Source: a virus
Virus record (IMG/VR): IMGVR_UViG_3300025141_000040
Span: 1 to 64,000 of that record
Length of the DNA stretch: 64,000 nucleotides
Reading direction: 5' to 3' (one strand)
A program made the translations under genes and the position numbers. The notes below the pieces were generated by a model. That model did no database searches. It was given only the letters and a program-made list of their open reading frames with translations, and had not been told where the DNA came from. Positions 952 to 57,375 of the stretch are shown here, piece by piece (the stretch's first letter is position 1; each line of letters begins with the position of its first letter).

Positions 952-970
952 GGGGGTATCTCCTTACACA

Positions 971-999: not shown

Positions 1000-1041
1000 T
1001 AGGGCAGTGTCAAGTTGATCCCCTCGTGGTAGAAGACCGTC

Positions 1042-1787: not shown

Positions 1788-1836
1788 CACCGACGATGCC
1801 GCGCGCATGGCCGCGAAGCTGCCGGGAGCCTGACCA

Positions 1837-2301: not shown

Positions 2302-2313
2302 AAGGAGTACGGC

Positions 2314-2772: not shown

Positions 2773-2831
2773 GGGTAGCCCCGGCGCACACCCCGGAGTA
2801 CCCTCGCCGCGCCTCTGAGGAGGGGCCGACC

Positions 2832-3759: not shown

Positions 3760-3839
3760 GGGGCGGGCTCCGGTCAGGGGCAGCGATGGTGACGAGGATA
3801 CGGCATCCGGCCGGAGCACCGGGGGCAGACCGGCTCGGC

Positions 3840-5036: not shown

Positions 5037-5068
5037 CGGGGGTTACTCCGGGGTGCCAGTCTGCCCCA

Positions 5069-5096
5069 AGCATAACAACTGTTGTGTAAGAGTCAA
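5069..5096 (-). promoter_or_regulatory. Internal promoter TTGACT-N16-TATGCT upstream of the VWA gene; the spacer holds the palindrome ACAACAGTTGT
   Basis: Minus-strand read is TTGACTCTTACACAACAGTTGTTATGCT, lying in the 67-nt gap between genes 5104.. and ..5036. Confidence 0.5.
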
Positions 5097-5103
5097 GGCG
5101 TTT

Positions 5104-6228: not shown

Positions 6229-6270
6229 GGGGTGTCTCCGATAGGAAGGAACGAACGGGACGACTGTGGC

Positions 6271-8381: not shown

Positions 8382-8476
8382 TCTGGTCCTCAATGAGCAG
8401 GGGGGACCAGCACGGCCCCTCTCACGCACGCGAGCGCGTGGGTGACGAAACGCCGTTATCCTACTGCATCCAGCCT

Positions 8477-8507
8477 GCGCGGGGGCACCCGACTTGCGCC
8501 CCCGCGC
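8477..8507 (-). terminator. GC-rich hairpin (10-bp perfect stem GCGCGGGGGC / GCCCCCGCGC) downstream of gene 8523..9608
   Basis: Stem read directly from the sequence. No U-tract follows. Confidence 0.35.
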
Positions 8508-8522
8508 GTGCGCGCGTGTTCC

Positions 8523-11065: not shown

Positions 11066-11067
11066 CC
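11040..11067 (+). repeat. 28-nt start-site cassette, copy 1 (CCGTCGAAGGGCTACGCAGTCGATGACC)
   Basis: Contains the nifS-like TGA and the giant-ORF ATG. Confidence 0.9.
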
Positions 11068-14000: not shown

Positions 14001-17000
14001 CAACCTCCGAGGGAAGGGGCCGAAGCGCGCGTTCCGCGATCTGAAGATGGACGTGCTGATGCCCTACGCGGACGCCGTTCAACTGTTCACCCCGGAAGGG
14101 CTGACGGATCTGAGCGACAAGGTGGACGCCCGCATCGCCACCGAAGCTGCGAAGCTCAAATGGGACCGTGGCTACCTCCTGCGCGCCACGGTGTCCGTGC
14201 CGAACCTGATCCACAATGACACCGGACGCAGGCGAGCCCTGTTCACCCGCGACTACTGGCACGACAAGATCAGCGCCGATCTGAAGCGGGGCGGGTGGAT
14301 CGTGGGCCGAACGGCCCTGGGTCGGCCGCTCTACGAGTTTGTGTTGCAGGATCACGCCACGGCCGAGCCCACACCCCCTACACCGCCTGCTCCTGCCCCG
14401 GCAGTCGAGGAGCCCCCCACTATGCCCGCCACCGCCTCGTTCGACTACCCCATCGATCCCACGGAAACGTCCCGCACCGAGGCGTGGTTCCGTGCGTTGT
14501 TCAACGCCTACGACGGGCAGCTTGACCAGCCGTTCCTGGCGACCGCGATGAAGTCGCAGTTTCCGCGCCTGGGGAAGCCGAACGTGCTCGCCACGTTCAC
14601 GCAGCTTCGCGGGTCGAACCAGATCGTGAAGGGTGAGGGAGCCGCGTGGATCTGGCCGGACCTCCTCCCGGCCGCGCAGGACGACAAGCTGCTGGCCGAC
14701 CTGGGCGTGGCGACCGGGGGCGGAAACAACGAAGACCTCGCCGCGCTGGACGTGGATGACCCCGAGCACCCCGAGCTTCCCGAGCTTCCCGAGCCCGTGA
14801 CCCCCGCGCCCTCTGGCCCACGGCCTGCTCCGGCTCCCCCGGATGAAGGCTTGACCGAGCACCCCGACCCGACCGCAGCGCCCGCGCTCCCCATGCCGTT
14901 CACCCCGCTCCCCGGCGTGACGTGGGTGGACCCCGCGCTCTACGGCTGGACGTGGCTGGAAGGGCCGCACAACACCAGCCTGACGCTGCGTCCGTGGGGC
15001 AACGCGCCCGACTCTTTCATGGTGGTCGAATCGCTCGCGGGCGAGGACGTGGGGCAGTCCTACTTCACCAAGAACGGCGTGCAGGGATCGGCCCCTGGTG
15101 GCAAGGCAGCGGCCTACGCTCACATGGAGGAGTTGGCTCGCAGCCTCGCGGCCGTGACCCCCGCGCACACGGGCTCCGCGACCCCGACCCCCGCCCGTCC
15201 GGCCGTGCCCTTCGCCAACAACGAGATACCGGACGTGGTGTCGATGGCGAAGGGAAAAGTGGGCGACGGCTGGCCCTTCCCGATCAGTGCGGACGTGTCC
15301 GGCATCGTCAGCAAGGTCGGGCGCAGGCAATGGCTGGTGAAGCCGATCAAGGAACAACCGTACGAGATCCCACGCATCGGAGGCACCGCCACGGGCGCAA
15401 AGACCGCGAACAGTGCCTCCGATGCGTGGGATCTCGTACAGGAGTTGATCACGCACGGCGGCGTGTGGGCCTCCGGGTGGACGCCCCAGGTGTCCGGCGA
15501 TCCCCACCGTACCGAGTGGCAGAACGCGGCGGGCTCCGAGGACGTGTGGGTCGAGCCCTGGACCGATTCGTGGATCGGGGTGGAAACCGGCACGCCGGGG
15601 TCGCAGTACCCCGACGCCTGGACGGTCGGCCACAACCCTCGCTACCAGACCGACTCCACGACGAAGTGGTACTTCAACGAGAACGGGAAGGGGGTCGCCC
15701 CCGGTTCCATGATGGGCCACAGCAACGGGGACCGCAGCACGACGCCGCGCTCCGGTGGCGCGCAAGCCGCCGCCGACTTCCTGATGCAGACGTGGAGGAT
15801 CGCCTGGACGCCCGGTGCGTACCCGCAGCCCGCGCCCCCGACTCCGGCCCCGCCGCAGCCCACGCCGCCGACTCCCGCGAAGCCGGGACGACCGACGACG
15901 CAGGCCGAGCTTCTGCGCCGGATGGTGGTGTTCCTGACGGACACCGCCGACAAGATGGAGGACGGCACCGTCACCGCCGCCCGAATGAAGGGGCTGGAAC
16001 GCCTGCTCGACGGTGCGTGGGACGCGCTGATGAAGCTGCCCCCCGCCGCCCCGCGCAAGGGGAACCGCAGGCGGAACCCCGGCCCCCGCAGGCGGAACCC
16101 GTCGTCGCCCGAGGGCGAGCCGTGGCAATGGGACGCCCGCCGCCGCGTGGAGGCCGCGTTCAAGGCGAAGTACGGAGTGGACCCGCTGCCCGCAGGTGAC
16201 CCCCGGATCAGCCAGTACACCGCGCCCTGGTTCCCGGTGTTCCACCTTCCGCGCCACCTGTTCCGGGCGCAGTATTACGACAAGCCCCTGTCGCGGACCC
16301 TCGGCAAGCTGTCGCTCCACAAGGAGGACTTGCCCGACAAGAGCTTCCTGCTCACCGCCGTCTTCCGGTCGCCATTCCCGGCGTTCCCTCCCGGTCGGCT
16401 GATCACGCTCGACGGTCGCGTGGGGTTCATCCAGAGGCAACCGGAGATCCGGCACTCCACCCACTACGGCAAGGACGGCAAGGGCGTGGCCGTCGAGACA
16501 TTCGACAACTTCTATCACGTCGGTTGGGACACGGGCATCGACTACAAGGTGCCGCCCGAGGCCCTGGCCGGGGCGACCTTGGTGCCCCTCGCGGACGCCT
16601 CCGACTTCGTTCCGGGCAAGGTGGTCTGGTCATTTGGAGGCCCGCAGCGCATCGAGCGCGTGAACACGACCCGGTACAACGGCTTGAAGAACGTGGAGAC
16701 TCCCGACCCCGAGGACTGGACGCTCTACTTCGTCGGCGGCGGTAGCTCCCTGGTTGGCCGTGATGGGCCGTCGAAGGTTCCTGCCGGAACCACCGTCACG
16801 CTGCTCCCCTCAAACGACCAGATCGTGCGCGTGATCTCCGGCCCCCACACCGGGTTGGTCGGCATCGTGAAGGCGGCGTCCGCCGCCTCCCTGACGCTCC
16901 GACTGCGCCCCTCGTACAGCCTGCGCCCGGTGCTCTCCCAGGTGGACGTGACCCTGACGGCCCCGGCGAACGGCGACTGGTGGACCGTGGTGGAACCGCT

Positions 17001-17256
17001 CACCGCCACCGAGTACCCGGAGTTGCACGCGGAAGTCCTGTCATGGACGAACGTGTACGAGAACGGCCAGTGGTTCATCGGGACCGTGACGGACAACGAC
17101 GCCGAGGGCAGCGACGACGACCGTGCGTACCGGGACGCGCACCTGATCGTGGAGGCTGCGGACGACCGCCGCCGCCGCTGGTTGGTGCAGCGGGTGTACC
17201 CGATCACCCGAGCCGAGTACAACACGACGCTGGCCTACATCGACCAGCACGGCTGA
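11062..17256 (+). CDS. Giant multidomain ORFan (2064 aa) with Pro/Ala/Thr linkers, translationally coupled to the cysteine desulfurase
   Basis: ATG 11062 overlaps the nifS-like TGA (ATGA). Open frame of 6.2 kb. PEPEPEPEPTPEP and PAPAP linkers separate the modules. I recognised no catalytic motif. Confidence 0.85.
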   Translation: MTASPLRVEHSGTQDFPACPAGWTTDGWPFFEDYADDWDEPWNHPGIWHVTTAAEEVAQDGRLLSRRELAAKGITTAGLGGGTANVASSKISVTTNPHAAQRVYRTMQIAALAAQNRLPAWRVAAEALKSSRVEDLLYEVAERDTYLWEAQGDREDDAARLRDDLANLLDVGTEDAVATPQELRAAANALERTFYNGEAKYGLLQSIEAIGTEAHQYVIESNESAVAPVGFTESWSKWAKVNPRNIRLLRLAACPGARVRIEPSESELRFDPKDLRVVGVESLKGLTNLTEAPKKLRLRNPARRRTTKSMTTTTPTPSTLPSDSLPPTKPREILAAHGIGVGDVVTAVFRGATVSGVVRKINPTSVFVGQLQWPDSYTNKRWDKISIPPHDIEGIEAPDYEVDFLRHAHHFGLAAGDLGREFPIHNTTFRVVGLNIALKDPVLIRQVGGSTVQGPVFRHGAAQIAAALSTIDRRRTTKSMTDPRPVQSSSAPQIPAESDLTWVAGRHRRGYNPHYPVDRATLPNGGEVMRAGSAGRLYPPYQISRFPGVERRRFSESTFADAYAAALAAQAAAAPSKPLADLPADLSAGLKRAIKGAYPKSAKEAKLVLTHLGVGIIPFKQGRKLMGYDLALPEGAGLGFDYYSPRSSRSRGIDKTALWGQGYTSDPEAEAARLIFMEWLKNAAAVALGGDVAEKLARKAQGLPMEARSADPAVRTCGACWRDIKATATKFQGGRDPAGHRHGTNLYLVDHGYTIKWGRTGSCPGVATLPWEESDEAARLEITALLSVSTHVTAEWRKWTGFVEQYDAGNTKGLPGIPKRGDRTSPYGVKPVEYEEIILRPTGDTKYEWRDKAAYAEADALRFLRDKLWSKHFGSIPYMRAALREWEPQAADVVPAKGPPWIKAFQPEDFAGNPLAGDDDPSAPEPEPEPEPEPTPEPLPAPAPTPAPAPPPPEGTPLQLRLAVLWRGAKPPEKMPRWITNLRGKGPKRAFRDLKMDVLMPYADAVQLFTPEGLTDLSDKVDARIATEAAKLKWDRGYLLRATVSVPNLIHNDTGRRRALFTRDYWHDKISADLKRGGWIVGRTALGRPLYEFVLQDHATAEPTPPTPPAPAPAVEEPPTMPATASFDYPIDPTETSRTEAWFRALFNAYDGQLDQPFLATAMKSQFPRLGKPNVLATFTQLRGSNQIVKGEGAAWIWPDLLPAAQDDKLLADLGVATGGGNNEDLAALDVDDPEHPELPELPEPVTPAPSGPRPAPAPPDEGLTEHPDPTAAPALPMPFTPLPGVTWVDPALYGWTWLEGPHNTSLTLRPWGNAPDSFMVVESLAGEDVGQSYFTKNGVQGSAPGGKAAAYAHMEELARSLAAVTPAHTGSATPTPARPAVPFANNEIPDVVSMAKGKVGDGWPFPISADVSGIVSKVGRRQWLVKPIKEQPYEIPRIGGTATGAKTANSASDAWDLVQELITHGGVWASGWTPQVSGDPHRTEWQNAAGSEDVWVEPWTDSWIGVETGTPGSQYPDAWTVGHNPRYQTDSTTKWYFNENGKGVAPGSMMGHSNGDRSTTPRSGGAQAAADFLMQTWRIAWTPGAYPQPAPPTPAPPQPTPPTPAKPGRPTTQAELLRRMVVFLTDTADKMEDGTVTAARMKGLERLLDGAWDALMKLPPAAPRKGNRRRNPGPRRRNPSSPEGEPWQWDARRRVEAAFKAKYGVDPLPAGDPRISQYTAPWFPVFHLPRHLFRAQYYDKPLSRTLGKLSLHKEDLPDKSFLLTAVFRSPFPAFPPGRLITLDGRVGFIQRQPEIRHSTHYGKDGKGVAVETFDNFYHVGWDTGIDYKVPPEALAGATLVPLADASDFVPGKVVWSFGGPQRIERVNTTRYNGLKNVETPDPEDWTLYFVGGGSSLVGRDGPSKVPAGTTVTLLPSNDQIVRVISGPHTGLVGIVKAASAASLTLRLRPSYSLRPVLSQVDVTLTAPANGDWWTVVEPLTATEYPELHAEVLSWTNVYENGQWFIGTVTDNDAEGSDDDRAYRDAHLIVEAADDRRRRWLVQRVYPITRAEYNTTLAYIDQHG
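11967..11994 (+). repeat. 28-nt start-site cassette, copy 2 (CCGTCGAAGGACTACGAAGTCGATGACC)
   Basis: In frame inside the giant ORF (RRRTTKSMT). Confidence 0.9.
12477..12504 (+). repeat. 28-nt start-site cassette, copy 3 (CCGTCGAAGGACTACGAAGTCAATGACC)
   Basis: In frame inside the giant ORF (RRRTTKSMT). Confidence 0.9.
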
Positions 17257-17709: not shown

Positions 17710-18309
17710 TCACGACGCGGGCGGCACGGGTTTCACGGGTGCGGGGCGCTTCGCCTTCCGGCGTCGTCCCATCTTGGGGCGCTGCCCGAGCGCGGCGACC
17801 CCCGAGGCCGGGACGACCCATCCGGGGAGCACGCGGTTCCGCAGGGGGCCGAGAGGGACAAGGATCGTCCAGCCTTCGACGGCGAGGAGCCCGGTACGGT
17901 CGGGGTGCGGGTCGAAGATCAGCCGTCCGTTGCTGTAGACGACCGCGTGGTAGTAGCCGCGCCCCGACTTGCCCGAGGCGATCCAGAACAGCGGCACGCC
18001 GCCCTTGCGGAGCATGACACCGGGCGGGTGCGGCCCGTCCCCGCTGATCGCGGTCAGGCCGAAGTCCTCCGCGAGCCAGTCGAGGATCGCCGGGTCGCGC
18101 AGCGGGAGCGCATCGGTGGCGCAGACCGCATCCTTGCCCTGGCAGCGGTTCCGGGGGTCCGGCACCGTGTCGAGGTCAACGCCGAGAACGGTTGCGTAGG
18201 CCGCTTCCAGGCAGTTGCCCCAGGGGAAGCCCAAGCGGTCCTGCGTCTGCGCTCCCATGAGCAGCAGGCGTTCGGCAAACTCGCGGGTGATGTGGCGCTT
18301 GCGTGGCAC
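17710..18309 (-). CDS. Putative papain-like (C39-like) cysteine peptidase with basic C-tail
   Basis: Candidate triad: GNCLEAA (Cys), GYYHAVVY (His), FDPHPD (Asp). GTG 18309 has no SD but has TAGACT exactly 7 nt upstream. Confidence 0.6.
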   Translation of the reverse strand: MPRKRHITREFAERLLLMGAQTQDRLGFPWGNCLEAAYATVLGVDLDTVPDPRNRCQGKDAVCATDALPLRDPAILDWLAEDFGLTAISGDGPHPPGVMLRKGGVPLFWIASGKSGRGYYHAVVYSNGRLIFDPHPDRTGLLAVEGWTILVPLGPLRNRVLPGWVVPASGVAALGQRPKMGRRRKAKRPAPVKPVPPAS

Positions 18310-37844: not shown

Positions 37845-38582
37845 CTACGCGGGCGGGCCGACCGGGTTGCCGTCCGCGTCGATGACCTCGGTGGGCGTGA
37901 CCGGCTTGCCCGCGCCGTTGTCCGACGTGGAGGAGGCGCGGCGCTTCGCGGCCTTGCGCTTCGCGGGGGCCTTGCGCTTCGCGGGGGCCTTGCGCTTGCG
38001 CTTCGGTCGCGCCTCCTGCGGCTCCGACTCCGTGCTGGGGGCCTCGATCACCTGCTCGCCAGCCTCCATGCGGTCGAACAACTCGTGCGGGTCTGCGCCA
38101 CCGAGATCCGCGCCGGGTTCCGCGTCGAAGTCGAAGTCCGCTTCCGCGTCGTCCTCCTCGTCATCGTCCACGAAGTCACCGAAGTCGTCGTCGTCCACGA
38201 AGTCATCGTCCACGAAGCGGTCATCCCCGTTGAACGCGGCGGCGTCCGCGAAGGCCACGGGGGGGTTGGCGTTCAACGCCTTCAACTCCTCCACGGTGAG
38301 CCGGGTGCCCGTGCGGACGGAACCCAAGTGGTCCTCGATCCGGGCCAGGAGGCGGCGCTGCGCGTCCCCCAGGATCAAGGCGTTGTAGGCCATGCGGTCG
38401 CGCAGGTACTCCTTGACCCCGCCGTCCAGGGCTTCCCACTGATCCACGGCCTCGTTGAGTCCTTCCGTGTCGCGGGCGTTCGCTTCCAGCAACGCCAGCG
38501 GTGCGAGCGCACGAACCTGCGTGAGTGCCGGGTGGTCGATCTTCCAGGCGGGCATGTTCGGTCGTCGGGTCTTGCGAGCCAT
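37845..38582 (-). CDS. Hypothetical protein with acidic DDDFVDDDDFGDFVDDDEEDD block and KRKAPAKRKAPAKRK basic repeat
   Basis: TAATG stop/start overlap with the upstream gene. 245 aa. Confidence 0.75.
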   Translation of the reverse strand: MARKTRRPNMPAWKIDHPALTQVRALAPLALLEANARDTEGLNEAVDQWEALDGGVKEYLRDRMAYNALILGDAQRRLLARIEDHLGSVRTGTRLTVEELKALNANPPVAFADAAAFNGDDRFVDDDFVDDDDFGDFVDDDEEDDAEADFDFDAEPGADLGGADPHELFDRMEAGEQVIEAPSTESEPQEARPKRKRKAPAKRKAPAKRKAAKRRASSTSDNGAGKPVTPTEVIDADGNPVGPPA

Positions 38583-41138: not shown

Positions 41139-41711
41139 ATGGCCGGTGCCCTTTCTGTTGCCAAGACCTCGGGAAGCTCCACGCGGGGCAAGACCTCGAC
41201 CCGTGGACGCAAGACCACCACGCGCGGCAAGTCCAGCCCCGCCGCCAACTACGAGCGGCTGCGGAACCGGATCGCCAAGGCGTCCTCGCAGTACAAGGAG
41301 GGCGTGTCGCAGACCGTCCACGTCGCGGAAACGCAGGGCTCCCTGGCGCTGGCCGCGTTCGCGGCGGGCTACCTCGGCCCCGCCAAGATGCGGATCTTCA
41401 ACTCGCCCCTCGGTGACGTGCGCCTCCTCGCGGGTGCGGGCCTCCTCGGCTTCGGGCTGATGAACGCATTTGACGGCTCCGTCAAGGGCGGCATGGCCGC
41501 GAACCACATGCTCGCGCTCGGCTCCGGCCTGCTCGGTGCGGTGGTCTACGAGCACGCCCACAACGCGGGCGTCGAGCTTGCCGCCAAGAAGGGCAAGTCC
41601 GCCACCGCCACCAAGGGCTTCTCGGGACGCCGCCCGGTGCTGGTGTCCGGCCACGACTACGACAACTTCGGCAACGGCCAGCGCGTCGGAGCCCGCCTCC
41701 GCGCCCGCTAG
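41139..41711 (+). CDS. Membrane protein (about 3 TM) with Ser/Thr/Arg/Lys-rich N-tail; first gene of the rightward late block
   Basis: GAAGGAA 8 nt upstream. Helices LALAAFAAGYLG, LLAGAGLLGFGLMNAF and MLALGSGLLGAVVY. Confidence 0.75.
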   Translation: MAGALSVAKTSGSSTRGKTSTRGRKTTTRGKSSPAANYERLRNRIAKASSQYKEGVSQTVHVAETQGSLALAAFAAGYLGPAKMRIFNSPLGDVRLLAGAGLLGFGLMNAFDGSVKGGMAANHMLALGSGLLGAVVYEHAHNAGVELAAKKGKSATATKGFSGRRPVLVSGHDYDNFGNGQRVGARLRAR

Positions 41712-41747: not shown

Positions 41748-43439
41748 ATGAGTCCGACCCCCCGCGCACCTGACGGCTACCACTACCTCGGTGTGGCACC
41801 CGTTGAGATCGACGCGGGGGGTCGCGCCCATGTTTCCCGAGAAAACCTCCGGTTCGCACCGGAGTTTGGCGGCGCAGCCGCCACGAAAGGCTCTGGCGTT
41901 ATGGGAATCATCGGCAATGCACTCGGGGGAACCCTCGACTTCCTTTCTGGAAACCCGGATGCTGACGCGGACGGCGATCTGGCCGACGATTTCGGCGGGG
42001 ACAACGCCAGCGTGGTCCGTGCCTGGATGAAGGGCAAGTACGCGCAGTCCGGCACGATGCGGACGGACGGCACGAACCTCTGGTCCTACGCGCTGCTGAT
42101 CGGCACGACGGACGGCAGCGGCGGGAAGGTGGTCTACAACCACCGTTCCAGTCAGACCACCAACCGCCACATCAACCTCGCTCGGCAGTACGCCCACGCG
42201 ACCCTGCCCGCACCGTTCGGCGGCAACCCCGATGCTGACGCGGACGGCGATCTCGCGGACGACTTCGGGGACGAGCACTACGAAGACTTCGGCAAGCGGA
42301 AGCGGCGGAAGCGGCGGAAGCGGAAGCGCGGCAAGCGGCGAGCGCCCAAGGCCCTGTCCCCCAAGGTGGTCAAGCAGAAGCTCGGTAAGCACCTTAAAGG
42401 CAAGAAGTGGACGAAGGGCGACAAGCTCTACATCACCTTCGCCGCCAGCCTAAACAAGAAGCAAGCCGCCAAGGTCGCGGGCAGGAGGCTGAAGAAGAAG
42501 GGGATCAAGTACGAGGGCGGGATCTCCCTGTACCTGTACGGCGTGTTCCCCGCGCCCCCCTTCTTCCCCCTCCCTCCCCTTACCCCCATTGGCCTCTGGC
42601 GAGCCCAGGTCGGGCGACCGGGTTCCACGGCGAAGGCCGTCCAGTCGGCCAAGGCCAGCAAGGGCGGCGGCAAGGGCGACAGCATCGTGCCGGAGCCCGC
42701 GCAGGGTGCGCTGAAGTCGATCCCCGGCCGGGAAGGCGGCAACGTCACCCCCGATTGGGCGCAGGACCACCTCACCCCCGATGCGGGTGGTGGTGGCGGC
42801 GGTGGCGGCGAGGACGCTGCGGTCGAGGCGCGGTATCAGTCCGCGATCCAGCGGCTCCTGGCCGACGAGTTTGGCCTCGCGTTCGTGGACCTCTCGGGAG
42901 ACGGACAAATGGACGACTACGACGACTTCGGTGACGACGACTACGACGACTTCGGTGACGACGACTACGACGACTTCGGCAGCGATGACGAGTACATCGA
43001 CCTCGGCAGCGATGACGATTTCGATGACTTCAGCCGCAAGATGCTGACGAAGCCGCAGGGTGGCGGTCGGAAGCGGCGCAGCAGCGGTCGGAAGCGGCGC
43101 AGCAGCGGTCGGAAGCGGCGCAGCAGCGGTCGGAAGCGACCTACATCGCGCCCGCGTGCGTGCCTCCGGTTCAAGCGGAGTCCCGCCCGCCGACTGCTCG
43201 GCGCGATCCACCGTGCGTGGCGGGCGGAAGCGGGCGTCGGACGCGGAAAACTGAGCCAACGACACAAGGCGGCGTGGATCTCCTACATGGTGAGCTACAC
43301 GCCACAGAGCAAGGACGAGGAGCGCATGAAGCGTGGATTCCTCCGCTGCCAGAAGGCGCTCGGGAACCTCCCGAGTACGAGTACGGGTGGTGACCCCTAC
43401 GCCAGCTACCTCGGTGGCGGCTGCGGGTGCGGCCGGTAG
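41748..43439 (+). CDS. Repeat-rich ORFan (563 aa) with alternating acidic and poly-Arg/Lys blocks
   Basis: GGGAGA 5 nt upstream. Repeats: GNPDADADGDLADDFG x2, KRKRRKRRKRKRGKRR, DDYDDFGD x3, GRKRRSS x3.5. Confidence 0.8.
   Translation: MSPTPRAPDGYHYLGVAPVEIDAGGRAHVSRENLRFAPEFGGAAATKGSGVMGIIGNALGGTLDFLSGNPDADADGDLADDFGGDNASVVRAWMKGKYAQSGTMRTDGTNLWSYALLIGTTDGSGGKVVYNHRSSQTTNRHINLARQYAHATLPAPFGGNPDADADGDLADDFGDEHYEDFGKRKRRKRRKRKRGKRRAPKALSPKVVKQKLGKHLKGKKWTKGDKLYITFAASLNKKQAAKVAGRRLKKKGIKYEGGISLYLYGVFPAPPFFPLPPLTPIGLWRAQVGRPGSTAKAVQSAKASKGGGKGDSIVPEPAQGALKSIPGREGGNVTPDWAQDHLTPDAGGGGGGGGEDAAVEARYQSAIQRLLADEFGLAFVDLSGDGQMDDYDDFGDDDYDDFGDDDYDDFGSDDEYIDLGSDDDFDDFSRKMLTKPQGGGRKRRSSGRKRRSSGRKRRSSGRKRPTSRPRACLRFKRSPARRLLGAIHRAWRAEAGVGRGKLSQRHKAAWISYMVSYTPQSKDEERMKRGFLRCQKALGNLPSTSTGGDPYASYLGGGCGCGR
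42912..42983 (+). repeat. Tandem 24-bp coding repeat x3 (DDYDDFGD)
   Basis: GACGACTACGACGACTTCGGTGAC repeated. The third copy ends GGCAGC. Confidence 0.9.
43065..43139 (+). repeat. Tandem 21-bp coding repeat x3.5 (GRKRRSS)
   Basis: GGTCGGAAGCGGCGCAGCAGC in three perfect copies plus a partial fourth. Confidence 0.9.
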
Positions 43440-43473: not shown

Positions 43474-43625
43474 TCGGGGCGCGCGAACAGCGGCCTGCGT
43501 GGCTGCGAAAAGGAACCCGAACCGTGGCTGAAGCGTACAGGCGAATCTACTCCAATTCGGAGGGATACCTGCACATCGGAAGCCCCGCTTTCGGGGGAAA
43601 CACCGCAATCGCGGGAGGCAGACAA

Positions 43626-44291
43626 ATGGACTACGACGACTACGACGACTTCGGACTGGATCTGGTGGACGACGATCTCGGCTACGACGACTTCGACGGC
43701 GACTACGAAGATTTTGAGGACGACGACTTCCTGGGCGAGATGGACTACGCCTCCCTCGGCGCGATGGACTACGCCTCCCTGGGCGACGACGACGACGACG
43801 ACGACGAGGACGACCTCGGGCGTCGGCGGCGACGGCGGCGACGGCGCGGTCGGAAGCGGCGCAGGACACGCGGTCGGAAGCGGCGTCGTCCCTCCAAGCG
43901 GCGGGCGCGTCCCGCGAAGGCAAAGGCCCAGGTGGTTCAGAAGACGATCCTCACCGGCAACGTGCTCCTCGACAACACGGCGGGCACGATCACGATCCGC
44001 CCGCAGTTTGACTTCGTGGCCGAGGACGTGACGTTCATCGCGGTCACGGCGGCTCAGTGGACGGTCACCGGCATCCAGTTTGGAGATCGCATCGTGTTCT
44101 CCAACCCCACCGGAGTCCCCATCGCGGTGTTCGCCGTCGCGGGCTTCATGCGCGGACTCGTCAAGGGTGCGGCAATCGCGGCTGGCCTGGACATTCAGTT
44201 GTCCGTCGTCACGACCACGACCGAAACCCTCACGGCGGTCTTCACCGGGCTGAAGCGCGGAACGACCGGCTGCGGGCCGGGAGCCGTCTAG
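43626..44291 (+). CDS. Acidic-arm / poly-Arg-arm / beta-rich C-domain protein, paralogue 1
   Basis: GGGAGG 7 nt upstream of ATG 43626. The track extension from 43524 has only about 65% GC3 and rare codons. The C-domain is shared with gene 44435..45118 and ends in the same GLKRGTTGCGPGAV. Confidence 0.8.
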   Translation: MDYDDYDDFGLDLVDDDLGYDDFDGDYEDFEDDDFLGEMDYASLGAMDYASLGDDDDDDDEDDLGRRRRRRRRRGRKRRRTRGRKRRRPSKRRARPAKAKAQVVQKTILTGNVLLDNTAGTITIRPQFDFVAEDVTFIAVTAAQWTVTGIQFGDRIVFSNPTGVPIAVFAVAGFMRGLVKGAAIAAGLDIQLSVVTTTTETLTAVFTGLKRGTTGCGPGAV

Positions 44292-44297
44292 CCACCA

Positions 44298-44375
44298 AGG
44301 CGGTCGCCACGCCCCTTCGGGGGTAGATCGCCTGCCAGAATCGGAAAGCGCGGGGTCGAATGGTCGGCCCCGCGC
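44298..44375 (+). terminator. Two hairpins after paralogue 1: a CCCC-TTC-GGGG core (44312-44323) inside an imperfect longer stem, then GCGCGGGG-N12-CCCCGCGC (44348-44375)
   Basis: Stems read directly. No U-tract. Confidence 0.35.
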
Positions 44376-44434
44376 GCTCCGCAACCCCCCCACGGGACGC
44401 GAGCCGTCCCCCTGACGCTCTGAAGGAGCACACA

Positions 44435-45118
44435 ATGGACGACTTTGGCCTCGATCTCGTGGACGATGACCTCGGCGCGATGGACTACGCCAGCCTCGGC
44501 GGCTACATCGACTTCGGTGATGACGACGACGACGACGATGACTTCGGCATCGACTACTACGACTTCGGTGATGATGACGACGACGACGACGACGACGACC
44601 TCGGACGCCGCCGCCGCCGCCGCGCCAAGCGGGGACGCCGCCGTCGCCGCCGGGGAGGCGGTTCCCGTCGCCGCGCCAAGCGGCCCTCCAAGCGGCCCGC
44701 CGCCAAGAAGGCCCAGGTGGTGCAGAAGACCATGCTCGTCGGCACGACCGGCCCGCAGATCCTCGGCGCGTGGAACATCACGATCCGCCCACAGTTTGAC
44801 TTCGTGGCAGAGGATCTGACCTTCTCGGGTTCGATCATGGGCTCCAACGCGGGCGGTGTTCCGGGCGTGTGGTCGATCACGGGCATCCAGTTTGGCGACC
44901 GGATCGTCTTCAGCAACCCGGTCGGCGTCCCGGTTGCGATCTTCGTGGTCGGCGGGTTCATGCGTGGGCTGGTGAAGGGCGCGGCCATTGCGGCCGGACT
45001 CGACATTATGATCAACGCGGTCCTGACCAACGCGAACGCGACGACCCCCGGCACGCTGACCGCCACGTTCTCCGGGCTGAAGCGCGGCACCACGGGCTGC
45101 GGCCCCGGCGCGGTCTAG
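44435..45118 (+). CDS. Acidic-arm / poly-Arg-arm / beta-rich C-domain protein, paralogue 2
   Basis: GAAGGAG 6 nt upstream of ATG 44435. MDDFGLDLVDDDLG...GRRRRRRAKRGRRRRRR..., then ITIRPQFDFVAED...GIQFGDRIVFSNP...GFMRGLVKGAAIAAGLDI. Confidence 0.8.
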   Translation: MDDFGLDLVDDDLGAMDYASLGGYIDFGDDDDDDDDFGIDYYDFGDDDDDDDDDDLGRRRRRRAKRGRRRRRRGGGSRRRAKRPSKRPAAKKAQVVQKTMLVGTTGPQILGAWNITIRPQFDFVAEDLTFSGSIMGSNAGGVPGVWSITGIQFGDRIVFSNPVGVPVAIFVVGGFMRGLVKGAAIAAGLDIMINAVLTNANATTPGTLTATFSGLKRGTTGCGPGAV

Positions 45119-45122
45119 GCCA

Positions 45123-45145
45123 CCCCTTCGGGGCGGCTTCGGCTG
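45123..45145 (+). terminator. CCCC-TTC-GGGG and CGGC-TTCG-GCTG mini-hairpins after paralogue 2
   Basis: Same CTTCGG core as the hairpin after paralogue 1. The stems are short. Confidence 0.25.
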
Positions 45146-45161
45146 TCCTGACAAGCGCGTG

Positions 45162-45211
45162 AGTCTCGGGGCTGCGGGTTCGCCTATTATGGGCGTGCTC
45201 GCAGTCTCGGG
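45162..45211 (+). promoter_or_regulatory. Direct repeats AGTCTCGGG (45162-45170, 45203-45211) flanking the hairpin CGCC-TATTATG-GGCG (45181-45195) upstream of gene 45268
   Basis: TATTAT is the only -10-like hexamer in this GC-rich spacer. No -35 was found. Confidence 0.25.
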
Positions 45212-45267
45212 CTCGCAAGCGGGGGCCTCCGGCTACCGGGAACCCTCGCACTCACCCGGAGGTCGGC

Positions 45268-46017
45268 ATGGCTGGACGCGGCAACAGGTATCCGACCTTT
45301 GACGACCGTGAGGCGTTCTCTCGCGGTGCGCGCAAGCCTTCGGCGGTCCCTCGGGATCTCGCGGGCGTCCCCCTGCCCGCGAAGCTCTCCAACTACTACG
45401 CCCGCGACCAGATCGCCGCGAACCCGACGCAGGTGACCCCGGTGTGGTCCCCGACCAACCCGGCCACGCACAACTACACCAACTTCCTTCAAGGCGAAGC
45501 GCAGTTGACGTGGCCGCGCGTCATCAACATTTTCACGCAGCAGAACCGCCCCTTCGACGCCCGGATCGTGTGGACGGGTGGCGGCGGCACGTCCGGCATC
45601 GTGTTCGTGACCGGCTCGGGCGGTGGGCTTCAGTTGTTCGTCCGCTGCAAGACGATCCGCATCGATCTCGCCAACTGGTTGAACGTCGCGCAGGCCGTGA
45701 CCGTCGCCATTGAGGACGGGTTCGGGCAGACCCAGGAGCTTCACCGCATCATGCGCGGGCAGGCGCTTGCTGCCGGTACGTTCACGGAGGTCGATGTTCC
45801 AGCCTACGCCCGCGAGGTCCGCGTGGCTTCCGACGTGCCGGGACAGGCTCCATTGATCTTCGTGGGTCAGGTGGACGACGGCCCGACGATTATGTCGAGC
45901 TACACCGCCGACGAGGGCTTCGTCCCTGTAGGTGCTGCCTCGCGCCTGCGCGTGACCAACAACAACCCCGGAGCCCTGGCGAATTACGTCATTGACTACC
46001 GGCTCGGTTACCAATAG
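45268..46017 (+). CDS. Beta-rich hypothetical (possible virion) protein, 249 aa
   Basis: GGAGG 6 nt upstream. Composition rich in V/T/G/N strands. No motif recognised. Confidence 0.75.
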   Translation: MAGRGNRYPTFDDREAFSRGARKPSAVPRDLAGVPLPAKLSNYYARDQIAANPTQVTPVWSPTNPATHNYTNFLQGEAQLTWPRVINIFTQQNRPFDARIVWTGGGGTSGIVFVTGSGGGLQLFVRCKTIRIDLANWLNVAQAVTVAIEDGFGQTQELHRIMRGQALAAGTFTEVDVPAYAREVRVASDVPGQAPLIFVGQVDDGPTIMSSYTADEGFVPVGAASRLRVTNNNPGALANYVIDYRLGYQ

Positions 46018-48786: not shown

Positions 48787-49434
48787 ATGGACATAACCGT
48801 CGCCCTGGCGTTTCAAGAGAAAGGCGCACTCCGACTGCTGAATTGGCTGGCCGGTGAGAACGCGCTGATCTTCCGCGCCTACGACAAGCGCGCGAAGCGC
48901 AAGGGCGAGGCGAAGCTGCCGGGGCTCTACCAGTCCGGCATCCGGTACGAAACGGAGGAGGTCGAAACGTGGTCCGACTACCTCAACACGCTGATCCAGG
49001 GTCACGAGGACTGCGATGCGCTCGCAGCGATCCGTGCCGGTGAGCTTCGTGCCCGAGGCTGGAAGGCCATGCGGCCCCGCGACGAGCGCGACCCGGTTCG
49101 CTACCCCGGCGACGAGGGCTACGGGCTCGCTCGACGGCTCCGAGTGAAGTCGATCCCGGCCGAGGTCATCCTGACGACGCGGACGGAGCCCGGTCGCCCC
49201 GGCCTCTACCACTGTGTCGTGAAGTACCGCCTCCCCGGCAACCCCAAGGTCTTCTACGACGATCCCTCCGCACGCCTGGGGATGCTCGGCAACCCCGACG
49301 CCCCCGAGGTTAGGGACAAGCTCTCCGATCCCCGGAAGATCCTGGGGCAGAACGGCGTGCGATCCATCGTCCTGACCGCCAACGAGGGCGGGCTGATTGT
49401 CGGTCGCCGCCGACGCAAGCGGAGGCGCACATGA
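48787..49434 (+). CDS. Transglutaminase-like / papain-fold cysteine protease candidate with poly-Arg C-tail
   Basis: GHEDCDALAAIRAGELRARG (Cys), GLYHCVVKY (His) and FYDDPS (Asp) occur in the order typical of transglutaminase-like proteases. Ends in GRRRRKRRRT. Confidence 0.6.
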   Translation: MDITVALAFQEKGALRLLNWLAGENALIFRAYDKRAKRKGEAKLPGLYQSGIRYETEEVETWSDYLNTLIQGHEDCDALAAIRAGELRARGWKAMRPRDERDPVRYPGDEGYGLARRLRVKSIPAEVILTTRTEPGRPGLYHCVVKYRLPGNPKVFYDDPSARLGMLGNPDAPEVRDKLSDPRKILGQNGVRSIVLTANEGGLIVGRRRRKRRRT

Positions 49435-52900: not shown

Positions 52901-53761
52901 ATGAGCTACGACAACTATCAGCATGACGACGGCGGGGCCTACGAAGGCGACTTCGGTCGGAAGGGTGGCGACCCGGAGCAGGCCAAGTCAACCTTCACGA
53001 CTGTCTTGCGTGAGGGTTCCGCCGCCGTGAACAACCCGAACAAGTCGCAGGACAAGGGCCAGGACGCCCTCTGGTCCTGGGCGACCAAGAAGACCGGGAT
53101 CAACCTGACCAACCTGCCGAAGCTGCGGATCTCCACGAAGCCGGGGAAGTGGGCGGACAGCAAGAAGTGGAAGACGAAGGCACTCCGTCGCATCGCCCGC
53201 AAGGCGAAGTCCGAAGCGCCCAAGGTAGTGTTCGCCCCCGCGAAGTACCACCCCGCCGTCAAGTCGATGCTCTCCAACATCAAGGCCGCGAAGCGTGCGC
53301 TCGACGCCGCGAAGCCCCTGGCCGAAGCACAGGGCGGCGCGGCGGCAGCGACCTACCAGAAGCTCTCGCTGCGCTGGTACGAAGCCGCGTCCGGCCTCCT
53401 GCGGAACGCCGTGGTGAAAAAGACGGGGCAGGGGGTCAACATGGGCCTGCGGCTCAATATCTACACCAACATTCACCGGGGCGTGTCGTTCACGGCCTGG
53501 AACGCCGCCTTCGCCAAGATGGGCGGTGCGAGGTACGCCAGGGCGCTCAACAAGGACGCCCGCGCGTTCCTGGCAACGCTGAAGACCAAGAAGGCCAAGG
53601 TCCAGCGTGGTGCTCGGTCGGTCCAGCGTAGTGCCGAGTCGGCGCAGCGTGCGGTGGTGACCTCGGTGGACACCGTGCAGTCCTCTCCCGGCATGGGCCT
53701 CCTCCTCGGAGCGGGCGTCGTCCTCCTCGGAGCCGTCGCTATCAAACGACTGCGTGCTTGA
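52901..53761 (+). CDS. Lys-rich protein with C-terminal TM anchor
   Basis: GAGGA 7 nt upstream. C-terminal helix GMGLLLGAGVVLLGAVAI. Confidence 0.75.
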   Translation: MSYDNYQHDDGGAYEGDFGRKGGDPEQAKSTFTTVLREGSAAVNNPNKSQDKGQDALWSWATKKTGINLTNLPKLRISTKPGKWADSKKWKTKALRRIARKAKSEAPKVVFAPAKYHPAVKSMLSNIKAAKRALDAAKPLAEAQGGAAAATYQKLSLRWYEAASGLLRNAVVKKTGQGVNMGLRLNIYTNIHRGVSFTAWNAAFAKMGGARYARALNKDARAFLATLKTKKAKVQRGARSVQRSAESAQRAVVTSVDTVQSSPGMGLLLGAGVVLLGAVAIKRLRA

Positions 53762-53782: not shown

Positions 53783-53959
53783 ATGAAGAAGCCCGCGATC
53801 CTCCTGTCTCTCCTCGGCCTCGCCGTCGTCGGCGGCGTGCTCGTCGCTGACCGGAAGAACAAAGTCGTGACGACGCGCAGCGGAAAGCAGCTTCGACGGC
53901 CCAAGGGTATGTCCGACGCTGCGTGGCTCGCTGTTCGCCAGGGGGAGGGCCGCGCGTAG
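53783..53959 (+). CDS. 58-aa membrane-anchored micro-protein, paralogous to the N-terminus of gene 51195..52073
   Basis: Hand translation is MKKPAILLSLLGLAVVGGVLVADRKNKVVTTRSGKQLRRPKGMSDAAWLAVRQGEGRA. Matches RDGSTVRRPPGLSDAAWAAIAEGQG of the other gene. High GC3. Below the track length cut-off. Confidence 0.55.
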   Translation: MKKPAILLSLLGLAVVGGVLVADRKNKVVTTRSGKQLRRPKGMSDAAWLAVRQGEGRA

Positions 53960-54727: not shown

Positions 54728-55560
54728 CGACCCGACTTGCCAGCCGCCCGACACCCGCGCCGTGTCCCCGAGTTTCGGGGCCGATGCAGGGCTTCGTGCG
54801 TCCAGCGAGCAGAATCGTGGGCTTCGGAGAGGTTGACCTGATCGCGGGGACCGACCTGTTCCCGACACGGGAGCCGCCGTCCTACTGGCGATCCGTGTTG
54901 GAAGCCCGGTGCGACGATCCGATCTCCGGCTACCAGCACCTTCCCGCCGAGATCAAGCCCGTCACTGACAGCCTCGCCGCCCTGGTCGAGTCCGCCTCGT
55001 CCAACGCCGTGATCACGCGCTGGTACAAGGACGACGCGCCCGCGCGTGAGGCAACCATCGCGGACGCCCGCCGCACGCTGCACGCCCTGGCGGATCTCCG
55101 CGTACTGCTCGATTCGATGCGGGCGCGAGGGGCGGTGACGGACACGTTCGTTCGCCTGTCCGCCGTCTACGCGCGCCTCGCTGCGACGGTCTACGGCAAC
55201 GCCTTCCCGGTGGATGCGAGGACGCGGAACCCGGTCCTCCCGAACGGGATGGAATCCGCGATTGTCAACGTGGACGGACTCACCGGGTTCCTTGTGGGTA
55301 CCTACGAAGGGACGACGGCTGACGGCGTTTCCCTCGGTGCGGCGCTCTCCGAGTACATGGAAGATGACTTCGGCACCACACCGCTCGTCGTTGTTATCAT
55401 CGGCATCGCCGCACTTGGGCTCGCAGGACTCCAACTCGCGGCGGCTCAGTGGAAGCAGGCCGAGACAGCCGCGCGTGCGGCCGATACAGAAGCAAGAATC
55501 GTCGCGTTGTCCGTGGTGGACGACACCAACTACTACGACAAGGCGCAGATCCGCGTATAA
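54724..55560 (+). CDS. Hypothetical protein with C-terminal TM anchor
   Basis: GTGA overlap with the upstream stop. TM helix TPLVVVIIGIAALGLAGLQLAAA. Confidence 0.7.
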   Translation: MTTRLASRPTPAPCPRVSGPMQGFVRPASRIVGFGEVDLIAGTDLFPTREPPSYWRSVLEARCDDPISGYQHLPAEIKPVTDSLAALVESASSNAVITRWYKDDAPAREATIADARRTLHALADLRVLLDSMRARGAVTDTFVRLSAVYARLAATVYGNAFPVDARTRNPVLPNGMESAIVNVDGLTGFLVGTYEGTTADGVSLGAALSEYMEDDFGTTPLVVVIIGIAALGLAGLQLAAAQWKQAETAARAADTEARIVALSVVDDTNYYDKAQIRV

Positions 55561-55596: not shown

Positions 55597-57375
55597 ATGG
55601 CCGCGAGCAAGACCGACTACCGCAAGACGGAGAACCGTACCATCCGTCTGACCGTTCTCGGGGCAACCGAGAATCTTCCGCTGGCGCTCTCCGGCTACGG
55701 GAAAGACTGCAACGGCGGCGACGGCTACTACGCCTACGTCGCTGCCCCGCAGCGGGCCAAGGGCCTGATGATCCACGAGGTTCCCGGTCCCGAAGGCAAG
55801 GTGTTCCACGCCTGGAAGTCGGGGTCGAAGGACAACCCGCCCAACCTGTCCGTGCTCGACAAGCTGAAGGTGGTCAGCGCGCAGGCGGCGCAGAACGCGA
55901 TCAACGGGTTGCAGAAGCTCGGCACGACCCGTCCGGTCGGCAGCGGCACGGCCGCGCAGTCGGTCCTCCGGGGTCGGTGGAAGGGGTACATCGAGTGCCA
56001 CCCGGCCGGTCCCCGCGTCGTCCTGACCCGCGACGTGGCGGCGTACACGTCCCTCGCGCTGGTGTCGGTCCCCGGCAAGGGGTGGGACTACGCGATCCAC
56101 GTCAAGGATCTCGCCTCGACCCGCTGGTTCACGGGCGGGAGCAGCAAGGCCGTCCGCAACAAGGGCGGGATCAAGTCGAAGTCCCTCACGGGCAAGACGA
56201 AGGGCACGATGAAGTCCGCGTTCAACGCCGCGATCCGCGACCTGTTCGGGCTCGTCGCGCAGGCGTGCTCCATCCGTGACACGCACCGGCCCGCCGCGCT
56301 CTCCTCGGCGCAGCAGGCCAAGTCGAACAGGCAGTCCGCCGCCCGCGCCGCCAAGAAGGGCAAGTCGTCCGCGCGCACCGCTCCCCTGACGGGTGGTGAG
56401 GCCAAGGCGTACCGGGCCGCGCGAAGGAAGCTGGCGAAGATGACCCCCGCCGAGAAGCGCATCGCCGCCCAGGTGAAGCGCGACAAGGGACCGGCAGCGC
56501 GGCCCGTCCCCGCTAGCATCGCGGCGCTGAAGTCCACCTACCGCAAGATCACCGAGGGCGAGAACGAAGGCAGCGCCGGAACCGTCCTGTCCGTGAAGCG
56601 CGACGACGAGGGCTACCTGCTCACCTTCCGCATCAAGGGCAAGACGATCCGCGTGCCGAAGACCTCGACCCGCGCCGCGAAGAAGGCGACCGGACGCAGC
56701 GCCACCACCCACGTCCGGTCGGAGCCCGTCGCCCGCCAGAAGAAGCTCGCCAATCGGTTCGCCACGTTGAACGACAACGCGGGCGGGTTGAAGGGCAAGC
56801 CGATCTTCATCAAGTCGGTCGGCCCGAACAAGAAGGGCACCTACGACCCGCGCCACGGCGGCGCACTCCTGACCGTCCTGATTCCCACCAAGTCCTCAAT
56901 CAGCGAGCGGACGATCAACCAGTACAAGCGGACCTCGGAAGGCCCCGAGGGCGTCCTCTCCCTGTCGGGCGGCAAGGCCGCGTTCAAGGCCGCGTTCAAG
57001 GACATTGGCTACAACAAGAACGACGCGGGCAAGACGACGTGGACCGACAAGTCCATGATCCGCATGGCCGACGCGCTCAACGCCAACGGCGTGCTCGCCA
57101 ACGCGGGGATCACGCTCGGCGTGAACGACAAGAAGCGGGTGGCGAAGGCCAGGGCCGCGATCAAGGCCAAGGCCGATGCCAAGGCCGAGGGCAAGTCCGC
57201 CGCGCCCAAGAAGCGCAAGCGCAAGGTGAAGCCGCAGGTGTCCGGCCCCGCCACGTCCGCGCCCACCGACGCCGAGTTGGATCTCCTCATGGAAGACCCC
57301 GGTGCGGCGTTGGGGATGGACGATCTCCTGCTCGGTGGTGACGACGACGATCTGGAAGCGGTGTTCGGCCTGTAG
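55597..57375 (+). CDS. Lys-rich basic protein (592 aa), possible nucleic-acid-binding virion/internal protein
   Basis: AGGAGA 6 nt upstream. Lys clearly outnumbers Arg, unlike the rest of the window. Contains PKKRKRKV (57205-57228) and an acidic C-terminus DDLLLGGDDDDLEAVFGL. Confidence 0.8.
   Translation: MAASKTDYRKTENRTIRLTVLGATENLPLALSGYGKDCNGGDGYYAYVAAPQRAKGLMIHEVPGPEGKVFHAWKSGSKDNPPNLSVLDKLKVVSAQAAQNAINGLQKLGTTRPVGSGTAAQSVLRGRWKGYIECHPAGPRVVLTRDVAAYTSLALVSVPGKGWDYAIHVKDLASTRWFTGGSSKAVRNKGGIKSKSLTGKTKGTMKSAFNAAIRDLFGLVAQACSIRDTHRPAALSSAQQAKSNRQSAARAAKKGKSSARTAPLTGGEAKAYRAARRKLAKMTPAEKRIAAQVKRDKGPAARPVPASIAALKSTYRKITEGENEGSAGTVLSVKRDDEGYLLTFRIKGKTIRVPKTSTRAAKKATGRSATTHVRSEPVARQKKLANRFATLNDNAGGLKGKPIFIKSVGPNKKGTYDPRHGGALLTVLIPTKSSISERTINQYKRTSEGPEGVLSLSGGKAAFKAAFKDIGYNKNDAGKTTWTDKSMIRMADALNANGVLANAGITLGVNDKKRVAKARAAIKAKADAKAEGKSAAPKKRKRKVKPQVSGPATSAPTDAELDLLMEDPGAALGMDDLLLGGDDDDLEAVFGL

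Follow-up and report, generated by a model that had tools for sequence, protein, structure and literature searches.

Basic arms on jelly-roll capsid proteins are a textbook means by which very small viruses hold their nucleic acid. In adenoviruses, which have a double-jelly-roll capsid, the viral cysteine protease adenain removes an N-terminal propeptide from pVII and pVI; the same system includes an Arg-rich DNA-condensing segment, and the C-terminal peptide of pVI uses a cysteine. In phage T7 gp2.5, bacterial SSB, and HMGB1, the surface that binds DNA is basic and is masked by the protein's own acidic tail. Prokaryotic double-jelly-roll viruses have genomes of 7-18 kb, and the Odin and FLiP groups lack a packaging ATPase and have been proposed to assemble around the genome (Yutin et al. 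2018, PMC5894146). Here we consider genes A and B, which are tandem open reading frames (ORFs) on the plus strand of IMGVR_UViG_3300025141_000040, of which we analyzed a stretch of 64,000 nt (the window). A and B appear to belong to an undescribed lineage of tailless viruses, mostly in Myxococcota assemblies; we found no description of this lineage in the literature. Our preferred reading, to which we assign a probability of about 45%, is that A and B are capsid-attached proteins with an Arg-rich block that binds a packaged polyanion and an acidic block that masks it until assembly.

Because the window is uniformly rich in G+C (65-70% throughout), genes were called by third-position G+C. Gene A was called from an ATG at 43626 to 44291 and gene B from an ATG at 44435 to 45118. 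The initial annotation described them as tandem paralogs, each with an acidic arm, then an Arg/Lys tract of 35-40 amino acids (aa), and then a shared C-terminal domain (the C-domain), and we confirmed this layout. In gene A, the acidic block (43626-43820) has 65 aa, of which 32 are Asp or Glu, with units such as DDFG, DDLG, and MDYASLG (twice); the basic block (43821-43928) has 36 aa, of which 26 are Lys or Arg; and the jelly-roll-like C-domain (43929-44288, or to 44291 with the stop codon) has 120 aa and a hidden Markov model match with E = 3e-56. In gene B, the acidic block (44435-44605) has 28 Asp or Glu among 57 aa, the basic block (44606-44713) has 23 Lys or Arg among 36 aa, and the jelly-roll-like C-domain (44714-45115, or to 45118 with the stop codon) has 134 aa. 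A and B have an overall identity of 56% (BLASTP E = 3e-57), which rises to 72% in the C-domain, and they share the C-terminal end GLKRGTTGCGPGAV. We found no extra copies of the C-domain elsewhere in the window.

Gene A probably begins upstream of its called ATG. The 34 in-frame codons before this ATG (43524-43625) encode an N-terminal module of about 30 aa, AYRRIYSNSEGYLHIGSPAFGG, which is kept in most homologs. A module of this type also lies in frame upstream of the called ATG in two relatives (L007 and L008). Given this conservation, the true start is most likely the GTG at 43524. Gene B does not have the N-terminal module.

Shine-Dalgarno sites precede both gene A (GGGAGG) and gene B (AAGGAG, at the end of the A-B intergenic region, 44292-44434). 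This intergenic region also contains G+C-rich hairpins at 44298-44333 and at 44348-44375, the latter with a 12-bp stem, and 44289-44434 has an RNAfold z score of -2.6. RNAfold also indicates strong structure between gene B and the next gene (45119-45267): the sequence from 45116 to 45260 folds with -85 kcal/mol (z = -5.3), and none of 200 shuffled sequences folded as well. The initial annotation was thus correct that both genes have a Shine-Dalgarno site and are followed by GC hairpins, but these hairpins have no U tract, so we did not count them as canonical terminators. The high expression of A and B that the initial annotation proposed is deduced from the Shine-Dalgarno sites and the hairpins only. 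An Rfam search of the whole window, including 45119-45267, found no family, and a tRNA scan found none. The structured region at 45119-45267 could set the ratio of the products of gene B and of the gene that follows it.

In our view, the strongest evidence about A and B is the conserved order of their neighbors. The gene directly downstream of B (45268-46017, plus strand) encodes a double-jelly-roll-like protein of 249 aa that is the candidate major capsid protein of the element, and it is followed at 48787-49434 (plus strand) by a gene for an enzyme-like protein of 215 aa. Three large relatives (L005, L006, and L007) have the same gene order, with a single A/B-like gene. The 215-aa family also provided a route to small integrated elements in Myxococcota-type chromosomes. 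When we scanned species-representative genomes with an alignment of this family, we found 140 loci, mostly in assemblies labeled Myxococcota or Deltaproteobacteria and often several per genome; the corresponding scan with an alignment of the A/B family, whose patterns were too strict, found none. Among the 57 loci with enough upstream DNA, 56 contain an A/B-like gene and all 57 contain a capsid-like gene, and all 56 of the former have the order A/B-like, capsid-like, enzyme-like. The C-domain match ends a median of 96 bp before the capsid-like match begins.

Two proviruses (L016 and L017) likewise have this order. Their A/B-like proteins contain the N-terminal module, DDFG repeats, an Arg block, the C-domain (E = 1e-40 to 1e-46), and a C-terminal Cys, and their capsid-like proteins match the window's capsid candidate with E = 5e-23 and 2e-18. 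The full order in the small proviruses is a hydrophobic protein with a basic tail, the A/B-like protein, the capsid-like protein, a small beta-rich protein, the 215-aa-type protein, a protein whose end is rich in Cys, another with two membrane-like segments, and a homolog of a 592-aa basic protein that is described below. Elements of this lineage range from roughly 15-20 kb (the proviruses) to 64 kb (the window) and 105,769 bp (one contig). Because the order is conserved, the A/B-like gene is a core gene of a conserved morphogenetic module, and because it lies directly upstream of the double-jelly-roll-like gene in essentially every relative, A and B are likely to have a role in the virion.

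Structure prediction gave a compatible picture of the C-domain. For gene B, AlphaFold2 modeled residues 96-217 as a beta-sandwich with a predicted local distance difference test score (pLDDT) of about 90; seven strands stand out clearly in the model, and two of them have short helices between them. When we compared the model to the PDB with Foldseek, the top match was a protein of HHIV-2, and the best matches (E = 0.01-0.1) included capsid proteins of HHIV-2, SH1, and SPV1, the KHP30/KHP40 cement protein, and the coat proteins of potato leafroll virus and satellite tobacco necrosis virus. In a library of viral structures (E = 3e-4 to 1e-2), the matches were capsid proteins of CRESS-DNA viruses, circoviruses, and luteo-like viruses as well as jelly-roll domains of tail fibers. 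The fold class of the C-domain is therefore likely to be a jelly roll, although these matches are weak. We also considered whether the C-domain is related to one barrel of the neighboring double jelly roll, but hhalign gave this a probability of 0.2%.

For the neighboring 249-aa protein, the AlphaFold2 model (pLDDT of 87.5) is all beta, with about 16 strands. Its top Foldseek match is the major capsid protein of PhiCjT23 (7zzz_A, E = 2e-5), which is a minimal double jelly roll. It also matches the capsid proteins of FLiP, PM2, and STIV and cellular proteins with two barrels (GH172 enzymes and bicupins). Searches of Pfam, PHROGs, the PDB, and deposited phage genomes gave it no relatives by sequence.

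The A/B family is sizeable. With the C-domain as the query, a word-indexed search returned 41 metagenomic proteins (190-237 aa), none with a Pfam domain. When 1.84 billion cluster representatives were searched exhaustively with a profile, 163 had E ≤ 1e-3 and 115 of these had E ≤ 1e-10, so the family has at least 163 clusters; it has no Pfam model. Of 44 members sampled, none has a Pfam match beyond compositional ones, and for proteins A and B themselves, Pfam and PHROGs gave only compositional matches (to YL1, CDC45, and the acidic end of gp2.5-like proteins). A profile search of the PDB with the family found nothing significant. Searching 50,697 phage genomes by blastn and tblastn with the A/B region, a provirus homolog, and the capsid candidate gave no match, and a search of IMG/VR with the A/B family found one contig; two related contigs are listed there as viral.

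Within the family, the C-domain is nearly always C-terminal and is preceded by an arm of 90-180 aa. The usual layout is an N-terminal module of about 30 aa (for example, LTPLGHARVYRDxxGELVxDTDSLRR), acidic repeats, an Arg/Lys-rich stretch, and the domain. Cys is the last residue in 59 of 114 members and lies within the last six residues in 82 of the 114. In gene B, the arm (residues 1-90) was modeled as disordered, with a pLDDT of about 50 from an alignment of 36 sequences. One family member, P0137 (290 aa), has two tandem jelly-roll domains and no charged arm, which makes it a natural fusion of single jelly rolls.

The arms show an extreme segregation of charge. The sequence charge decoration of the A and B arms is 20-24 standard deviations below that of shuffled sequences with the same residues, and none of 2,000 shuffles reached it. 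The initial annotation had proposed that the acidic block is matched in charge to the Arg block, and this holds across the family. Among 33 close homologs, the net charges of the two blocks are correlated with r = 0.94. In 114 representatives with pairwise identities below 50%, the arm's content of Asp and Glu is correlated with its content of Lys and Arg (r = 0.74), and the correlation persists when arm length is controlled for (partial r = 0.59, p = 3e-12). The acidic residues are N-terminal to the basic ones in 131 of 144 arms. The block before the domain is basic in most of the 114 representatives, and where the acidic block is weak, the linker is rich in Gln and Pro rather than in Arg.

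The acidic arm is present as the initial annotation stated, but it is not plain low complexity. From its sequence, the acidic block is an array of [DE]-hydrophobic-Gly units: the motif [DE][FYLMWIV]G occurs 282 times in the arms versus 72.5 ± 7.4 times in shuffled arms. A stricter motif, D-Y-x-[DS]-[LF]-G, occurs within the window only at 41.6-44.6 kb, in four adjacent genes. The arms grow by tandem DNA repeats, of which gene A has one with a 24-bp unit at 43718-43799. In total, five genes in the window have acidic blocks that are followed by basic blocks.

In a neighbor-joining tree of C-domains, gene A pairs with P0010 and gene B groups with P0002, P0003, and P0006, and all of these lie inside one highly charged subclade. 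A related contig also carries two adjacent copies of the gene. The duplication is thus specific to this subclade and older than the window's virus.

We scanned A, B, and about 45 other proteins of the window and its relatives against Pfam and PHROGs. None of the scanned plus-strand genes at 41-61 kb had a significant match. We did not find a terminase, a portal, an HK97-fold capsid, a tail gene, or an FtsK/HerA ATPase among the window genes scanned (Pfam and PHROGs) or in the relatives (Pfam; about 51 kb of a 77-kb relative and the provirus loci). Within the window, a Walker A motif turned up inside only one likely gene, that for a MoxR-like AAA_5 protein (6879-8429). There is none in or near the morphogenetic module or in the L016 locus, and L017 has an off-frame match only. 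Most other proteins of the module are strongly basic, with net charges of +13 to +56, which fits a nucleoprotein core.

How might A and B act in such an element? We infer that they are present in the virion, that the arm points inward, that it binds DNA, and that it is first masked and perhaps later cleaved. Specifically, the jelly roll would anchor A and B in the shell beside the capsid protein encoded by the next gene, either at the vertices or alongside the capsomers, and the disordered N-terminal arm of about 90-135 aa would be a self-neutralized electrostatic device. The Arg/Lys block would bind a polyanion inside the particle and tether it to the shell. This polyanion would most likely be the DNA genome, because no motor was found and because many proteins of the module are very basic. 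Tethering would aid condensation and encapsidation in a lineage where no ATP-driven motor was found. Before assembly, the acidic block would prevent aggregation of the Arg block or its binding to nucleic acids of the host. At assembly, the acidic block would give way to DNA or to basic partner proteins, or the Cys-His-Asp enzyme encoded at 48787-49434 would cut it off.

Several observations weigh against this reading. First, Foldseek did return the viral jelly-roll neighbors that the initial annotation implied for the C-domain, but all of the matches were weak, with TM-scores of 0.25-0.48 and no specific homolog. Second, the double-jelly-roll call for the 249-aa protein comes from one Foldseek search with a TM-score of about 0.33, and its homologs in the small proviruses are just 200-205 aa; given the low TM-scores, we treat it as a candidate capsid protein and not a proven one. 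Third, the correlation of charges is partly inflated by shared ancestry, although the trend holds across deep branches. Fourth, the arms are on average net negative (mean of -6), so an uncleaved arm would give no net neutralization, and if there were 60 copies per particle, as expected for a penton role, the Arg blocks would neutralize only about 1% of the phosphates of a 64- to 105-kb genome. Fifth, no cleavage site is defined, and the enzyme has no recognized protease fold. We compared the junctions between acidic and basic blocks by eye to the cleavage consensus of adenain and rejected a match: the junctions are hydrophobic-Gly and then Ala, Arg, Lys, or Gln. Finally, hydrophobic segments in several module proteins raise the possibility of an internal membrane, and with a membrane like those of PRD1, PM2, and PhiCjT23, the shell proteins would not touch the DNA.

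A bolder form of the preferred reading, which we consider distinctly unlikely, is that A and B are part of a way to package double-stranded DNA (dsDNA) without a motor: the Arg arm would be kept inert by the acidic repeat, freed at assembly, and would condense the genome inside the shell. Release might be due to a new type of Cys-His-Asp protease, and other very basic core proteins would condense the DNA together with the arms. If this is true, it would be a prokaryotic counterpart of the logic of adenovirus core maturation, and it would tie these bacterial elements to the module in which Polinton-like viruses combine capsid, penton, and protease.

If there is an internal membrane, then A and B might instead bridge the shell and the membrane, with the Arg block bound to the anionic head groups of lipids and not to DNA. 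The acidic repeats would bind basic membrane-associated proteins of the module, and the arm would be a tether or a ruler. We consider this unlikely but credible. Transmembrane-like hydrophobic segments are encoded at 52901-53761, 53783-53959, and 54784-55560, and both L016 and L017 encode proteins with two such segments. The closest structural matches of the capsid candidate come from membrane-containing phages (PhiCjT23, FLiP, and PM2; PMC9719478), and HHIV-2, the source of the top PDB match for the C-domain, has an internal membrane. Also, the most conserved stretch of the C-domain, FxRGLVKGAAIAAGLDI, is hydrophobic. However, it is not obvious why a tether would require a charge-matched acidic block or 23-39 Arg, there is no recognizable packaging ATPase to fill a membrane vesicle, and the membrane is itself deduced from hydrophobic segments only.

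It is improbable, in our judgment, that A and B are a vertex or entry device. The paralogs would form the penton base, possibly a mixed one, with the arms pointing outward, and the poly-Arg block would act like a peptide for cell penetration or adhesion that stays masked until it reaches the host surface. The layout does resemble that of engineered activatable cell-penetrating peptides. Single jelly rolls that are encoded beside a double-jelly-roll capsid gene are typically pentons (PMC5894146), and two paralogs would be explained if they form a mixed penton, as in PRD1, whose pentameric penton base is built from two proteins that have related N-terminal domains (PMC9719478). But most relatives have a single copy, and in the small proviruses the other small beta-rich protein, encoded after the capsid gene, could be the penton.

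We would give similarly long odds to an assembly scaffold or condensate. The block polyampholyte arms of several module proteins (the 563-aa protein, A, B, and others) would associate or coacervate electrostatically, which would concentrate capsid parts and DNA at an assembly site, and the arms would not have to stay in the virion. The extreme charge segregation speaks for this, as do the five genes in the window with acidic-then-basic blocks, the restriction of D-Y-x-[DS]-[LF]-G to four adjacent genes, and the N-terminal module that A/B-like proteins share with a 563-aa protein encoded just upstream. Against it, there is no direct evidence for condensates, and the covalent link of the arm to a conserved folded domain with a Cys at its end points to a fixed place in a structure.

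Alternatively, A and B might not be virion proteins at all but nucleoid-associated, regulatory, or anti-defense proteins of a mobile element that merely happen to neighbor beta-sandwich genes. No experiment links the family to particles, the structural matches are weak, and in Myxococcota assemblies the elements occur in multiple copies per genome, along with recombinases. We nevertheless view this as very improbable: the gene keeps an invariant order with the double-jelly-roll-like gene, the genes are close together and probably cotranscribed, the nearest structural neighbors are viral capsid proteins, and two related contigs are classed as viral in IMG/VR. Last, a cement or decoration protein of the KHP30/KHP40 type on the HK97-type head of a tailed phage, which is suggested by two Foldseek matches (7dou_4 and 7dn2_1, probability 0.90-0.99, E of about 0.01-0.02), is scarcely credible, and we rejected it because the scanned window genes, about 51 kb of the 77-kb relative, and the two provirus loci revealed no HK97-fold capsid, portal, terminase, or tail gene and because the neighboring gene is double-jelly-roll-like.

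The two genes upstream of A belong to the same module. The first module gene (41139-41711, plus strand) is kept in all relatives and encodes a 190-aa protein with a basic N-terminus, a Gly-rich hydrophobic core, and the C-terminal end DYDNFG. The second (41748-43439, plus strand) encodes the 563-aa protein, which has two acid-then-basic modules and ends in GCGCGR. Its N-terminus is homologous to the N-terminal module of the A/B family (hhalign probability of 89%, E = 2e-6), and in some distant members of the family, its type of module is fused to the jelly roll. With the shared N-terminal module, the acid-then-basic modules, and the Cys motif, three consecutive genes are built from common parts. 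The 563-aa gene also contains perfect tandem repeats of 24 bp and 21 bp, which encode 2.8 copies of DDYDDFGD and 3.6 copies of GRKRRSS, so the acidic unit and the basic unit have both expanded recently. In L003, a contig that is nearly identical, the 563-aa gene appears to be disrupted, so its repeats may be unstable or misassembled. Acidic blocks followed by basic blocks were also seen at 2314-2772 (plus strand), where the protein ends in a membrane-like segment, and at 37845-38582 (minus strand). The charge-block design thus extends beyond the morphogenetic module.

The initial annotation also proposed two cysteine proteases near A and B. The one at 48787-49434 is encoded by a core gene of the module, and its family has invariant residues (E74-D75-C76-D77, H142-C143, and D158-D159), which makes it a candidate maturation protease. 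The family has at least 384 homologs, which are 50-70% identical, and has no Pfam model. However, the protein had no sequence match in Pfam or the PDB, even at E = 10, so "protease" is a reading of the residue pattern. The other, at 17710-18309 (minus strand), lies among replication and nuclease genes, outside the conserved module, and has no family or structure match. It does show an N-C ... Y-H ... D pattern, and it contains a DFGL motif, as do genes A and B.

The most basic protein of the module (55597-57375, plus strand) has 592 aa, a net charge of +56, and a Lys/Ala-rich tail, and it is kept in the large relatives and in the small proviruses. With its histone-H1-like tail, it is possibly a DNA-condensing core protein. 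Elsewhere, the window looks viral in its gene content. It encodes a ribonucleotide reductase, an SNF2 helicase, a DUF3987 primase-helicase-like protein, a D12 methyltransferase, a PD-(D/E)XK nuclease, and MoxR-like AAA_5 and DUF2201 proteins. There are also two giant ORFs on the plus strand: one of 2,189 aa at 10687-17256, and one of 3,569 aa that begins at 60769, has a helicase C-terminal domain, and continues in L009. In the small proviruses, a 1,637-aa methyltransferase/Eco57I/SNF2 protein adjoins the module. The SNF2-type DNA translocase of this lineage is possibly a motor or an injected anti-restriction protein.

The module was also seen in integrated elements that carry recombinases (L020/L016, L021/L017, L024, and L038), with at least three in the chromosome OZ245034.1. 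A few assemblies that are labeled Enterobacterales, Rickettsiales, or Klebsiella look mislabeled. In the 77-kb relative (L014, IMGVR_UViG_3300007512_001412), the region after the giant ORF (70-9457) encodes a tyrosine integrase, a serine resolvase, a GT2 glycosyltransferase with TPR repeats, a methyltransferase, a sulfotransferase, and an oxidoreductase. This region could be a sign of a temperate lifestyle with glycan-modifying cargo, or it could be the edge of host DNA.

This module marks a lineage of viruses that is almost invisible to current tools, and it defines two families that lack Pfam models (at least 163 clusters for A/B and at least 384 members for the enzyme). What is distinctive is that the charge of the acidic counter-arm tracks that of the basic arm across more than 100 diverged lineages, in dsDNA elements of up to about 100 kb where no packaging motor was found. 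If the preferred reading is true, it bears on how double-jelly-roll viruses without a packaging ATPase fill their capsids with DNA. The presence of proviruses in sequenced genomes that are assigned to Myxococcota makes the proposal open to experiment.

Among known systems, A and B resemble the Arg-arm capsid proteins of circoviruses, CRESS-DNA viruses, luteoviruses, sobemoviruses, nodaviruses, and satellite tobacco necrosis virus, which also have a disordered basic arm on a small beta-sandwich. The initial annotation's analogy to the capsid design of small icosahedral viruses is thus partly supported. However, A and B are not the sole shell protein: a separate capsid candidate is encoded next door, and the genomes are large, of a size typical of dsDNA viruses. 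A and B also have no detectable sequence relation to the Arg-arm proteins, and they add an acidic block (and, in most members, the N-terminal module) before the Arg block.

A small jelly-roll protein in the capsid module is also found in double-jelly-roll viruses (P31 and the N-domain of P5 in PRD1, the N-domain of P1 in PM2, and A223 in STIV). To our knowledge, the penton or minor capsid proteins of PRD1, PM2, and STIV do not carry long acid-then-Arg arms. The label of penton protein fits the gene context of A and B, and the mixed penton of PRD1 is a precedent for the two paralogs (PMC9719478), but the FtsK/HerA packaging ATPase of PRD1-type double-jelly-roll viruses (PMC5894146) was not found in the module. 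Every capsid gene in the Odin group has a small conserved gene of unknown function in front of it (Yutin et al. 2018, PMC5894146), and this, along with the lack of a packaging ATPase, resembles the present lineage. By description, which is the only basis of this comparison, the Odin genomes differ in being 7-11 kb, and the preceding protein is small and lacks conserved polar residues (PMC5894146).

By analogy, A and B also resemble the adenovirus system, with an Arg-rich segment after an N-terminal extension, a candidate Cys protease, and a double-jelly-roll-like capsid. The differences are that we found no match to adenain (Peptidase_C5) or to pVII and that here the Arg block is fused to a jelly roll. 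The masking that we propose would be akin to that in acidic-tail proteins (gp2.5, SSB, and HMGB1) and in engineered acid-masked poly-Arg, where masking is within the molecule and uses an acidic stretch that bears aromatic residues; the weak PHROG match of the A/B family to gp2.5-like proteins is compositional. Unlike those proteins, A and B have an N-terminal arm on a capsid-type domain, and their acidic stretch is an array of [DE]-hydrophobic-Gly repeats. We know of no counterpart to the charge-matched acidic pre-arm of such repeats, the N-terminal module, and the terminal Cys. Overall, A and B, though members of neither family, would function like Arg-arm capsid proteins and like the core precursors of adenoviruses.

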